The translations under genes and the position numbers were made by a program. Shown in pieces: positions 14,701-37,078 of a stretch of DNA of 64,000 nt. The notes under the pieces are model-generated. The model was not told the DNA's origin, did no database searches, and saw nothing but the letters and a program-made list of their open reading frames with translations. This DNA comes from Escherichia coli. Its GTDB lineage: Bacteria > Pseudomonadota > Gammaproteobacteria > Enterobacterales > Enterobacteriaceae. Within the stretch, counting starts at the first letter, position 1; each line of letters starts with the position of its first letter. The DNA lies in assembly GCF_022846255.1 (NCBI RefSeq), contig NZ_AP025682.1; one strand, 5' to 3'.

Positions 14701-15162
14701 ATGAGCCAGGACAGTAGAGTTTTCTTTCGTATATTCTTCGGTATCGGTCTGGTACTGATCCTCATTTCTGTTGTTATCTTTTATAACCAGTTCACCTATA
14801 GCAAAGACGCGATTCATACTGAAGGCGTCATTGTTGATACCGTCTGGCACTCCAGTCATTCTCATCGCACGGGTAAAAATGGTTCGTGGTATCCCGTCGT
14901 TGCCTTTCGTCCGACGCCAGATTACACGCTAATTTTCAATTCAAGTATTGGCAGCGATTTTTATGAAGACAGTGAAGGCGATAAAGTTAATGTTTATTAT
15001 TCTCCAGGACATCCTGAAAAGGCTGAGATAAATAACCCGTGGGTTAATTTTTTTAAATGGGGGTTTATCGGCATTATGGGCGTTATTTTTATCTCCGTCG
15101 GTTTATTAATCAGTATGCCCTACTCTAAAAAGACACGCAGGAAACGGAAGTCCCGCCCATGA
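14701..15162 (+). CDS. ymfA: inner membrane protein YmfA (DUF3592)
   Basis: ORF 14659-15162; start set after the potD terminator at MSQDSRVFF..., 153 aa. Confidence 0.8.
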
Positions 15163-29050: not shown

Positions 29051-30355
29051 TTAATGCAACTTCAAACGTGGACGGATAACGCGGTTAATACTCCCCACCA
29101 GCATCATTAATCCGGTTTTAAAGTAACCATGCAGCGCAATCTGGTGCATTCGGTACAGCGAGATGTATACAAAGCGCGCAATTCGTCCTTCAATCATCAT
29201 TGAGCCGCGTGTCAGGTTACCCATCAGGCTACCGACGGTGGAAAAGTTCGACAGCGATACCAGCGAACCGTGATCTTTATACTGATAATTTTTCAGCGGC
29301 TTACCGTTCATCTGCGCCAGAATGTTGTTCATTGCGCAGGTTGCCATCTGATGTGCGGCCTGAGCGCGCGGCGGAACAAAGCCCCCTTCCGGACGCGGGC
29401 ATGACGCGCAGTCGCCAATAGCGTATATGTCTGGATCGCGAGTGGTTTGCAGCGTCGGTTCCACCACCAGCTGGTTGATACGGTTGGTTTCAAGACCACC
29501 GATATCTTTCAGGAAGTCTGGCGCTTTGATCCCGGCTGCCCACACCATCAGATCAGCCTCAATATATTCGCCATCTTTAGTGTGCAGGCCGCCTTCATCA
29601 GCACTGGTGACCATGGTTTGCGTCAGCACGCGAACGCCAAGTTTCGTTAACTCACTATGGGCCGCAGCAGAGATACGTGGCGGCAATGCAGGCAAAATAC
29701 GTTCGCCCGCTTCTACCAGCGTTACGTTCAGGGCTTCGTTGGTCAGACCTTTATAACCGTAACTGTGCAGTTGCTTGACCGCGTTGTGCAATTCAGCGGA
29801 GAGTTCTACACCCGTCGCGCCGCCGCCGACAATCGCAATGTTTACTTTGCCATTCGCGCCCAGGTTGGCGGAGTATTTCAGGAACAGATTCAGCATCTCC
29901 TGGTGGAAGCGACGCGCCTGGTGCGGGTTATCGAGGAAAATGCAGTTCTCTTTGACACCTGGCGTATTGAAATCGTTGGAGGTGCTACCCAGCGCCATTA
30001 CCAGGGTGTCATAGGCGATTTTACGTTCCGGAACCAGCAATTCACCTTTTTCGTCGCGCAGTTCTGCAATAGTGATTGTTTTCGCTTCACGATCAATATC
30101 AATTACGGAACCCAGCTGGAACTGGAAACCATGATTGCGCGCATGGGCCAGATAGCTCAACGCATCGACGCCTTCATCAAGCGAGCCAGTCGCCACTTCG
30201 TGCAGCAGCGGTTTCCACAGGTGGCTGTGGTTACGATCGACCAGCGTAATTTTGGCTTTTTTCTTGCGTCCCAGCTTATGCCCCAGCTGTGTTGCCATTT
30301 CCAGCCCACCAGCACCGCCGCCGACAATCACAATTTTTTTCAATGGCGTAGTCAA
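29051..30355 (-). CDS. ndh: NADH:quinone oxidoreductase II (NDH-2)
   Basis: ORF 29051-30382; probable TTG start at 30355 ([17 protein letters not shown]...), 434 aa. Confidence 0.93.
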
Positions 30356-30491
30356 CGTGACCCCCTTAAATTTATTAACCAATTGTTAATTAATGGTTAT
30401 TAACATAGCTCTTAATTAACAACAGGTTACAGCAATGAAAATGTTCTTCGCTATTGAGAATAACATGAACGGTGCATTGGTCATACCAAAA

Positions 30492-34195: not shown

Positions 34196-34555
34196 TTACA
34201 GACCTTTATGCGCCAGCATTGGTCCCAGCGGACGGCCACCCAACAAGTGCATATGGATGTGGTAAACCTCTTGTCCGCCATGGCGGTTGGTGTTCATGAT
34301 CAGACGATAGCCATCTTCGGCAATACCTTCTTGCTCAGCAATTTTTGCCGCTACGGTGATCATGCGTCCCAGCGCCTGCTCATGCTCAGCTGACACGTCG
34401 TTCACAGTCGGAATGAGGATATTCGGAATGATCAGAATATGCGTTGGCGCTTGCGGCGAAATATCGCGAAACGCCGTTACCAGATCATCCTGGTAGACGA
34501 TATCGGAGGGGATCTCACGACGAATAATTTTGCTGAATATAGTTTCTTCTGCCAC
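34196..34555 (-). CDS. hinT: purine nucleoside phosphoramidase (HIT family)
   Basis: ORF 34196-34573; probable GTG start at 34555 ([16 protein letters not shown]...), HIT motif HIHMHLL, 119 aa. Confidence 0.9.
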
Positions 34556-34888
34556 GACATTTTCCTTTTTCAAATAGCCATGCGTTGCGCCATGCTACGC
34601 CGCGCCACACTGCGAGTATAGAGTATGGTCGAGTTAAACCTGCTCTTTCAACCTTAACTCACGATTTCTTAAGCAAAAAATCGTTTTGCTGCCGTATATA
34701 TCGCCATTATTCCCATTTCTGCCTGCGAATGCGCTGAAAAGACATTCTCTGTTTGGTTTACACGTCAAATATGAATGCGTATATTTCTCATTTGCATTTA
34801 CATGCAAAATTATTCGCACACTAAATATAACCGCTCATCACCCTCCTCCGGCATGAGCCTGACGACAACATAAACCAAGAGATTTCAG

Positions 34889-37078
34889 ATGCTTTCAACA
34901 CAATTTAACAGGGATAATCAATATCAAACCACCTCCAAACCGTCACTGCTTGCCGCCTGCATAGCACTGGCACTCTTACCTTCCGCCGCTTTTGCTGCAC
35001 CAGCCACTGAAGAAACGGTGATTGTTGAGGGTTCAGCCACTACTCCAGTTGATGACGAAAATGATTACAGCGTAACGTCTACGTCTGCGGGTACCAAAAT
35101 GCAGATGACTCAACGTGATATTCCTCAGTCGGTCACTATTGTTAGTCAGCAGCGGATGGAAGATCAGCAGTTACAAACGCTGGGCGAAGTGATGGAAAAC
35201 ACGCTGGGGATCAGCAAAAGCCAGGCGGATTCCGATCGTGCTCTTTATTATTCCCGCGGATTCCAGATCGATAACTATATGGTTGATGGTATCCCCACCT
35301 ATTTTGAATCGCGCTGGAATCTGGGCGACGCACTTTCTGATATGGCACTGTTTGAACGCGTAGAAGTAGTGCGTGGCGCGACAGGACTCATGACCGGGAC
35401 GGGTAATCCATCTGCGGCAATTAATATGGTTCGAAAACACGCGACCAGTCGTGAATTTAAAGGCGATGTCTCGGCGGAATACGGTAGCTGGAACAAAGAA
35501 CGGTATGTGGCGGATTTACAAAGCCCACTCACCGAAGATGGTACAATCCGCGCACGAATTGTCGGCGGCTACCAGAATAACGACTCATGGCTGGACCGCT
35601 ACAACAGTGAAAAGACCTTCTTCTCCGGCATTGTCGATGCTGATTTAGGCGATCTTACGATGCTTTCAGCCGGTTACGAATATCAGCGTATTGATGTTAA
35701 TAGCCCAACCTGGGGCGGTTTACCGCGCTGGAATACTGATGGCAGCAGCAACAGTTACGATCGCGCACGCAGTACCGCACCTGACTGGGCGTACAACGAT
35801 AAAGAGATCAACAAGGTCTTTATGACCCTGAAGCAGCGGTTTGCTGATACCTGGCAAGCGACGCTGAATGCCACCCACTCTGAAGTCGAATTTGACAGCA
35901 AAATGATGTATGTCGATGCCTATGTAAACAAAGCGGATGGTATGCTGGTTGGGCCATACAGTAATTATGGCCCTGGTTTTGATTATGTCGGAGGCACCGG
36001 TTGGAACAGCGGCAAACGTAAAGTTGATGCGCTGGATCTGTTCGCTGACGGTAGTTATGAATTGTTTGGTCGTCAGCACAATTTAATGTTTGGTGGCAGT
36101 TACAGCAAACAAAACAATCGTTACTTCAGTTCATGGGCCAACATTTTCCCGGATGAAATTGGCAGTTTCTACAACTTTAATGGCAATTTCCCACAAACCG
36201 ACTGGTCACCACAGAGCCTGGCGCAGGACGATACCACACATATGAAATCGTTATATGCTGCCACTCGTGTCACCCTTGCCGATCCGCTGCATCTGATCCT
36301 CGGCGCACGTTATACCAACTGGCGAGTTGATACGCTGACTTACAGCATGGAGAAAAACCACACCACGCCTTATGCTGGACTGGTGTTTGACATCAATGAT
36401 AACTGGTCGACCTACGCCAGCTATACCTCTATTTTCCAGCCGCAAAATGATCGTGACAGTTCAGGCAAATATCTGGCTCCAATCACCGGTAACAACTACG
36501 AGCTGGGTCTGAAATCGGACTGGATGAATAGCCGTCTGACCACCACGTTAGCCATCTTCCGTATTGAGCAGGATAATGTCGCTCAGTCCACCGGTACACC
36601 TATCCCCGGCAGCAACGGCGAAACCGCCTATAAAGCGGTGGATGGGACAGTCAGTAAAGGTGTGGAATTTGAACTCAACGGCGCAATTACCGACAACTGG
36701 CAGCTGACGTTTGGCGCAACGCGCTATATTGCAGAAGATAACGAAGGAAACGCCGTTAATCCTAATCTGCCACGCACCACGGTTAAAATGTTCACCAGCT
36801 ACCGGTTGCCTGTCATGCCAGAGTTGACGGTCGGCGGTGGTGTTAACTGGCAAAATCGCGTGTATACCGACACCGTGACACCGTATGGCACCTTCCGCGC
36901 CGAGCAAGGTAGCTACGCGCTGGTGGATCTCTTCACCCGCTACCAGGTGACGAAAAACTTCTCGTTACAGGGGAACGTCAATAACCTGTTCGACAAAACC
37001 TACGATACCAACGTGGAAGGTTCTATCGTCTACGGCGCACCGCGTAATTTCAGCATTACCGGCACGTATCAATTCTGA
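34889..37078 (+). CDS. fhuE: TonB-dependent ferric coprogen/rhodotorulic acid receptor
   Basis: 729 aa, signal peptide, TonB-dependent receptor, terminal aromatic residue. Confidence 0.93.
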   Translation: MLSTQFNRDNQYQTTSKPSLLAACIALALLPSAAFAAPATEETVIVEGSATTPVDDENDYSVTSTSAGTKMQMTQRDIPQSVTIVSQQRMEDQQLQTLGEVMENTLGISKSQADSDRALYYSRGFQIDNYMVDGIPTYFESRWNLGDALSDMALFERVEVVRGATGLMTGTGNPSAAINMVRKHATSREFKGDVSAEYGSWNKERYVADLQSPLTEDGTIRARIVGGYQNNDSWLDRYNSEKTFFSGIVDADLGDLTMLSAGYEYQRIDVNSPTWGGLPRWNTDGSSNSYDRARSTAPDWAYNDKEINKVFMTLKQRFADTWQATLNATHSEVEFDSKMMYVDAYVNKADGMLVGPYSNYGPGFDYVGGTGWNSGKRKVDALDLFADGSYELFGRQHNLMFGGSYSKQNNRYFSSWANIFPDEIGSFYNFNGNFPQTDWSPQSLAQDDTTHMKSLYAATRVTLADPLHLILGARYTNWRVDTLTYSMEKNHTTPYAGLVFDINDNWSTYASYTSIFQPQNDRDSSGKYLAPITGNNYELGLKSDWMNSRLTTTLAIFRIEQDNVAQSTGTPIPGSNGETAYKAVDGTVSKGVEFELNGAITDNWQLTFGATRYIAEDNEGNAVNPNLPRTTVKMFTSYRLPVMPELTVGGGVNWQNRVYTDTVTPYGTFRAEQGSYALVDLFTRYQVTKNFSLQGNVNNLFDKTYDTNVEGSIVYGAPRNFSITGTYQF

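Follow-up and report, generated by a model that had tools for sequence, protein, structure and literature searches.

A conserved, non-consensus Fur operator at the predicted promoter of fhuE in Escherichia coli

FhuE is a TonB-dependent receptor for coprogen, rhodotorulic acid and ferrioxamine B, and the control of its gene by Fur is textbook knowledge; the question that this locus raises is which bases upstream of fhuE form the operator, and how they lie relative to the promoter. We addressed it in a 64-kb stretch of the E. coli chromosome (the whole of the analysed DNA, hereafter the window), which runs antiparallel to K-12 and corresponds to roughly 1,132–1,196 kb of that genome. A preliminary description, written from the sequence alone, had proposed a Fur-regulated promoter at 34740–34830 and had named the downstream gene as fhuE. 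This identification agrees with the annotation of 5,425 E. coli genomes: a 1-kb segment of the locus matched 5,425 of 5,426 complete genomes, with fhuE and hinT annotated there. The fhuE coding sequence occupies 34889–37078 on the plus strand (an open reading frame of 729 amino acids with its ATG at 34889; K-12 b1102), while hinT, placed by mapping the K-12 annotation onto the window, lies divergently at 34196–34555 on the minus strand and bounds an intergenic region of 333 bp. Mapping from K-12 puts ptsG downstream of fhuE.

The interval 34740–34830 (91 bp) has a GC content of 29.7%, compared to 51.5% for the whole window, and no part of the surrounding 1 kb is poorer in GC. The AT-rich 47-mer quoted in the preliminary description was found exactly as given, at 34771–34817 (72–118 bp before the ATG). 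The GATAAT-like hexamer repeats reported in it did not hold up: with at most one mismatch to GATAAT/ATTATC there were 2 occurrences where composition-matched shuffles gave 2.2 (P=0.63), and with at most two mismatches 12 where they gave 14.2, so that neither threshold indicated enrichment. The 6-bp periodicity visible by eye is that of CATTTG/CATTTA (34789–34800), not of GATAAT.

We propose, with a probability of about 0.93, that the interval contains a sigma-70 fhuE promoter together with a repressing Fur operator (34768–34800) that lies over the -10 hexamer, and that Fe-Fur occludes the promoter. The initial observation of an iron-responsive promoter region was real and its interpretation correct, though Fur control of the fhuE promoter was already known. 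Locus, centre and conclusion are all the same as for the published fhuE site (Chen et al. 2007, PMC2189734; peak P31 in PMC10164565), and the score agrees to within 0.2 bits; the additions made here are window coordinates, the overlap with a predicted -10 hexamer and conservation across genera, and nothing else of substance. The main finding therefore adds little beyond base-level coordinates of the operator in the window. A warning about method also emerges, in that a Fur operator with experimentally shown occupancy and very high conservation is missed by a scan with the classical register or consensus and is detected only in the 7-1-7 register.

Register dependence of the Fur matrix match

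Chen et al. 2007 (PMC2189734) list footprinted regions in their Table 3, and 12 of these have chromosomal coordinates; from the MG1655 sequences of these 12 we built two 19-bp palindromic matrices, one per register. The classical-register matrix has the consensus GATAATGATAATCATTATC (16.6 bits) and the 7-1-7-register matrix the consensus AATGATAATCATTATCATT (18.8 bits). With the latter, a core Fur box, AATGCGTATATTTCTCATT, was located at 34774–34792 (12.6 bits, centre 34783), the fifth best 7-1-7 match in the 64 kb. Dinucleotide shuffles of the interval reached 12.6 bits with a probability of 0.028, the value for shuffles of the intergenic region being 0.023, and the whole window contained five matches of at least 12.6 bits compared to 1.1 in shuffles. 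Footprinted training sites scored 12.5–26.5 bits in this register and 4.7–25.2 bits in leave-one-out scoring, and it is by this latter span that we regard the fhuE site as weak but in range. The preliminary description had been unable to place the Fur box confidently by eye; it can now be assigned a core at 34774–34792 within an occupied region at 34768–34800.

The core match does not stand alone. Matches in the 7-1-7 register recur in 6-bp phase, with centres at 34777 (1.7 bits), 34783 (12.6 bits) and 34789 (5.1 bits) and a joint span of 34768–34798, and classical-register sub-sites centred at 34780, 34786 and 34792 each have a positive score. Overlapping sub-sites at 3- or 6-bp spacing, the arrangement by which Chen et al. 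(2007) define a cluster, are thus present at fhuE. The same study predicted a Fur site of 12.4 bits at NC_000913.2 position 1160880 (PMC2189734), which corresponds to window position 34783, so that its centre is identical to that of our own independent 12.6-bit match.

In the classical register, the interval scored no higher than 5.15 bits (at 34771–34789, rank 56 in the window), whereas the weakest training site reached 10.6 bits; with such a score and rank, this register is unusable here. The consensus GATAATGATAATCATTATC had no match with up to three mismatches anywhere in the 64-kb window, and the fhuE site is identical to this idealised 19-bp box at about 10 of 19 positions, which leaves it outside the classical definition of a Fur box. 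A matrix scan was the check named in the preliminary description, which held that the lack of a hit above threshold would refute its claim. The scan succeeded in the 7-1-7 register (12.6 bits) and failed in the classical one (5.15 bits). A rule of this kind depends on the matrix chosen and is unsafe, since the real fhuE operator passes only in the 7-1-7 register and a classical-register matrix would have led to its being wrongly discarded.

The consensus derived from ChIP-exo data, TGAnAATnATTcTCA, was not discriminating either: with up to three mismatches it gave 26 matches in the window against 16 expected, and 3 of about 18 distinct places lay within 150 bp of the fhuE start. One of the weaker Fur-like sequences near fhuE, at 34802–34820 (GCAAAATTATTCGCA at 34804–34818), scored 4.4 bits with three mismatches to TGAnAATnATTcTCA; this third site is poorly conserved and is probably not functional by itself.

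Elsewhere in the window, matches of 10–15 bits each were seen at several genes. Two lie at ndh (30326–30344 and 30434–30452, that is, +12 to +30 in the gene and 79–97 bp before the ATG), one about 90–110 bp upstream of icd (1396–1414), one between fabG and acpP (44954–44972) and one inside ymfA (14983–15001).

Fur occupancy, derepression and candidate auxiliary sites

Published experiments establish both Fur occupancy and Fur-dependent repression at this sequence, and occupancy at exactly these bases is already contained in published ChIP-exo tables. MG1655 peak P31, called under iron-replete conditions with fhuE as its target, spans 1160863–1160895 on NC_000913.2 (Gao et al. 2023, PMC10164565, supplementary file 3), or 1161640–1161672 on NC_000913.3 after the offset of +777 between versions. 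Mapped onto the window, it defines a Fur-occupied region at 34768–34800, whose centre is 1 bp from that of the 19-mer and whose extent agrees with that of the three phased matrix matches taken together (34768–34798). The K-12 sequence equals that of the window over 34766–34802, with the nearest differences on either side (34765 and 34803) falling just outside the occupied region.

A Fur peak at fhuE was reported in eight E. coli strains (PMC10164565), and we mapped those of six (MG1655, W3110, CFT073, BL21(DE3), ATCC 8739 and Sakai), leaving out W and KO11. The peak centre was 1 bp from the 19-mer centre in MG1655 and BL21(DE3), 4 bp in ATCC 8739, 7 bp in W3110 and 11 bp in CFT073. In these five strains the peak was called under iron-replete conditions only, and in Sakai under both iron conditions (PMC10164565). 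Deletion of fur raised fhuE transcripts in all eight strains (log2 changes of +5.0, 6.1, 6.1, 3.9, 5.6, 5.3, 8.4 and 3.0; PMC10164565), a derepression of 8- to 330-fold, with hinT and ptsG essentially unchanged or barely moving in the same deletion strains. A fhuE promoter-lacZ fusion is likewise repressed by Fur (PMC4676285). Together with the matrix match, these peaks, expression changes and fusion data uphold the proposal of a Fur-regulated fhuE promoter in the interval. An in vitro Fur footprint of the fhuE promoter was not found in the literature searched.

A second MG1655 peak, P32, was reported under both iron conditions and without associated regulation (PMC10164565), and maps to 34465–34498 inside hinT. 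This region lacks a Fur-like sequence, the nearest matrix match being one of 7.1 bits at 34427–34445.

The highest-scoring Fur-matrix match in the window is not the promoter site but a sequence inside fhuE, AGGGATAATCAATATCAAA at 34910–34928 (codons 8–14, +22 to +40; 14.7 bits), which lies 136 bp from the promoter site and matches TGATAATnATTATCA at 12 of 14 positions. Second sites are also found at other fhuE loci: between the operator and +60, sites of at least 12 bits occurred in 12 of 52 loci, with six distinct sequences, compared to 0.42 expected in shuffles, and three coding control zones of equal size each yielded such a site in 0 of 52 loci. Citrobacter, Kluyvera, Leclercia/Lelliottia, Superficieibacter and the strain analysed here each have their own (five lineages besides this strain being counted). 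These distributions could reflect a composite region in which a conserved primary operator over the -10 hexamer is supplemented by unstable downstream auxiliary Fur sites that tune the shut-off of fhuE, a reading we consider rather unlikely. Candidate auxiliary sites may include the +30 site of this strain and those at -19, -8, -26, +2 and -76 in Citrobacter, Kluyvera, Leclercia/Lelliottia and Superficieibacter.

It is less likely still that 34910–34928 itself is the working operator, or an equally important second one, at which Fur blocks elongation or cooperates with the promoter site. The score, the spacing and the excess of second sites described above fit such a role, but the site is not conserved even within Escherichia: K-12 has a 10.6-bit version, and four other Escherichia genome representatives have scores of 4.0, 3.9 and -0.1 or no detectable site. 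Its sequence is also constrained by the codons for R-D-N-Q-Y-Q. Moreover, all mapped ChIP-exo peaks are centred on the promoter site, and none among the six strains is centred on 34910–34928 (+30); the apparent exception in Sakai is an artefact of coordinate version.

The Sakai fhuE peak, at 1520750–1520762, falls on the internal fhuE site when read on NC_002695.2, and we rejected this placement. On NC_002695.2, the distance between the Sakai peak of PMC10164565 and the Fur box is 149 bp at iha and 131 bp at ECs1374, from which we conclude that the supplement uses another coordinate version. With an offset of 149 bp (calibrated on iha and roughly confirmed by ECs1374) the fhuE peak coincides with the 19-mer at the promoter, its centre falling in the same range of 1–11 bp from the site centre as in the other five strains. 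The Sakai coordinates of that study are offset by about 130–150 bp from NC_002695.2 near 1.42–1.52 Mb, and owing to this offset peaks labelled as intergenic fall inside iha and fhuE on the current record.

A further candidate for the composite arrangement is found in O157:H7. The downstream edge of the operator carries a repeat seed, CATTTG CATTTA CAT (34789–34803, plus strand), and copy numbers of CATTTG range from 2 in the window and 2 in K-12 to 4 in Sakai and 9.3 perfect copies in O157:H7 C1-057. A repeat with the unit TGCAAA is the typing marker TR4 in multilocus variable-number tandem-repeat analysis (MLVA) of E. coli O157:H7 (PMC2246123). Its primers map to 34604–34623 and to the K-12/O157 equivalent of 34919–34937, flanking the CATTTG array that begins at 34789; flanking primers, TGCAAA/CATTTG unit and variable copy number all identify the array as TR4, with the difference that the repeat in O157:H7 is expanded and perfect and the window carries its two-copy, imperfect and unexpanded state. 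We take TR4 to be equivalent to the CDC locus O157-25. The array prolongs the operator, with which it is in 6-bp phase, and in the classical register it scores a weakly positive +3.0 bits at each 6-bp step. In O157:H7, the CATTTG repeat could thereby extend the operator, and the strength of repression could vary with copy number; if repression were to change monotonically with the number of CATTTG copies, TR4 would be a functional repeat that tunes expression.

A narrow literature search (fhuE with VNTR) returned no link between TR4 and the fhuE Fur operator, and the literature searched contained no description of the lineage-specific second sites, the in-phase O157:H7 repeat or the hairpin discussed below. 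In a BLAST search with the O157 allele, coverage bands did not separate repeat copy numbers. As a single data point, Sakai has both the largest effect of fur deletion and the sole fhuE peak called under both iron conditions. The RefSeq annotation of O157:H7 C1-057 includes a 70-amino-acid 'hypothetical protein' that spans the fhuE promoter, the Fur operator and the expanded repeat, and this open reading frame is probably an artefact of the in-frame repeat.

Predicted promoter overlap and conservation of the operator

A consensus scan predicted a sigma-70 -35 hexamer, TTTACA, at 34757–34762 and, after a 17-bp spacer, a -10 hexamer, TATATT, at 34780–34785 (both plus strand). The pair matches the consensus at 10 of 12 positions, and the fhuE strand has no other sigma-70-like match, though the scan returned two sites compared to 1.2 in shuffles, so that the match alone is not significant. 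Placing the start 5–9 nt downstream of the -10 hexamer gives a putative transcription start at about 34792 (34790–34794, plus strand) and, from this spacing, we infer a 5'UTR of about 97 nt. The predicted -10 hexamer lies within the Fur box at 34774–34792, and both are conserved. The literature searched gave no mapped start for fhuE, so that the case for an operator overlapping the promoter depends on the predicted elements.

A scan of species-representative genomes with FhuE yielded 54 loci, which range from Escherichia to Pantoea and Rahnella and whose FhuE proteins are as little as 55% identical. The 19-mer or a close variant was present in all 52 sequences analysed (51 loci and the window), 95–166 bp upstream of the ATG. 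The exact sequence AATGCGTATATTTCTCATT occurred in 22 loci, the variant AATGCGTATATTTCGCATT (one change from AATGCGTATATTTCTCATT) in 21 and AATGAGTATATTTCTCATT in four, with other close variants in the remainder. Variants nearer the consensus were found in distant genera, AATGAGTATATTTCTCATT at 16.8 bits being an example. The fhuE operator is a non-consensus yet highly conserved Fur site, consisting of the core AATGCGTATATTTCTCATT and weaker flanking sub-sites in 6-bp phase.

An alignment of 26 fhuE loci (about 16 genera, from Escherichia to Pantoea) showed how narrowly this conservation is confined. Identity to the window base was 97% for the -35 hexamer, 96% on average for the 19-mer (34774–34792) and 83% for 34793–34800, compared to 35–52% for the spacer and flanks and 48% over the initial 45 bases of the fhuE coding sequence. 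Within the -10 hexamer, T34780, A34781 and T34782 were invariant in the 26 sequences, and 34783–34785 were invariant or nearly so. A conserved -35 hexamer followed by a conserved 25-bp stretch (34774–34798) that contains the -10 hexamer is the pattern expected of a promoter with an overlapping operator, and part of the conservation of this stretch could stem from promoter function instead of Fur binding.

The same alignment raises the question of whether the conserved block also serves a second regulator besides Fur, which would explain the near-invariant GCG at 34777–34779 and TTTGCATTT at 34792–34800. Conservation is as high at positions that add nothing, or count negatively, in the Fur matrix as at those of the consensus, and many genera have an inverted repeat, GCAT-N4-ATGC, after the box. 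Parts of the block nevertheless recur in other Fur sites: the fhuE site has the 9-mer AATGCGTAT in common with the footprinted fur operator, and TTTGCATTT in common with the footprinted tonB and fepA-fes operators. As both sequences recur in footprinted operators, the odd positions are compatible with natural Fur sites combined with the constraints of an overlapping promoter, and we regard a second regulator as improbable. We know of no candidate second factor for the fhuE promoter.

That the AT-rich stretch is a promoter only, perhaps with non-specific binding of nucleoid proteins and with iron control exerted indirectly (for example through RyhB or another regulator), is very improbable: the poor match to the classical Fur consensus, the unenriched GATAAT hexamers and the fact that the conserved block is partly the -10 hexamer itself would accord with it, but ChIP-exo peaks are centred on the sequence in 6 of 6 mapped strains (iron-replete only in five, both iron conditions in Sakai), the 25-bp conserved block at 34774–34798 is far longer than a -10 hexamer needs, the 7-1-7 score equals those of the footprinted fur and tonB sites, and the derepression without fur is of a size typical of direct targets.

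A repressing Fur operator over the fhuE promoter, our preferred reading, has close counterparts among characterised sites. Like the footprinted operators of fur, tonB, fepA-fes and iucA (pColV-K30), the fhuE operator is composed of sub-sites in 6-bp phase and, with the promoter as predicted, would overlap the -10 and start region; its score is at the weak end of the footprinted range, comparable to fur and tonB. Unlike these operators, it has a start deduced from the -10 spacing, no in vitro footprint that we could find and 10 of 19 matches to the idealised box. The position, matrix score, phasing and conservation of the site are observations of the present analysis, and it is by analogy with the footprinted iucA, fepA-fes and tonB promoters that we infer the assignments of -35, -10 and start, the number of dimers and the occlusion of the promoter. 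Under iron sufficiency, Fe2+-Fur binds 34768–34800, probably as two or three overlapping dimers, and would keep RNA polymerase off the whole -10 hexamer (34780–34785) and the start region near 34792. When iron is scarce, Fur would depart and fhuE would be transcribed with its putative leader of about 97 nt.

The fhuE leader and nearby inverted repeats

The predicted minimum-energy fold of the 5'UTR contains a hairpin, GCUCAU-N14-AUGAGC, at 34833–34858 (plus strand), about 30–56 nt before the ATG. Of the 51 fhuE loci folded, nearly all are predicted to form a hairpin about as far from the ATG, with stem sequences that differ among them. RNAalifold found no consensus structure in the 5'UTR, which we attribute to the poor MAFFT alignment there, and the comparison was made by per-sequence folding in its place. 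Folding gave a mean z-score of -1.45, with 41% of loci below -1.64, and Rfam had no match in 34500–35100. These predictions suggest that the hairpin may be conserved in structure.

Two inverted repeats were noticed near the predicted promoter. About 25 bp upstream of the -35 hexamer (window 34735–34751), most genera other than Escherichia carry a Fur-like palindrome, TGAAAC-N3-5-ATTTCA, whose score reaches 14.8 bits in one Kluyvera genome. The E. coli version (TGAAAAGACATTCTCTG) is degenerate, its half-sites being one base too far apart, and has no positive score. At the putative 5' end of the mRNA, the window carries the inverted repeat TTGCAT-TTAC-ATGCAA (34792–34807), which is broken in K-12 (ACAAACAA). 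Its inner part, GCAT-N4-ATGC, is absent from Klebsiella and Kluyvera and is retained in Citrobacter, Enterobacter and Leclercia.
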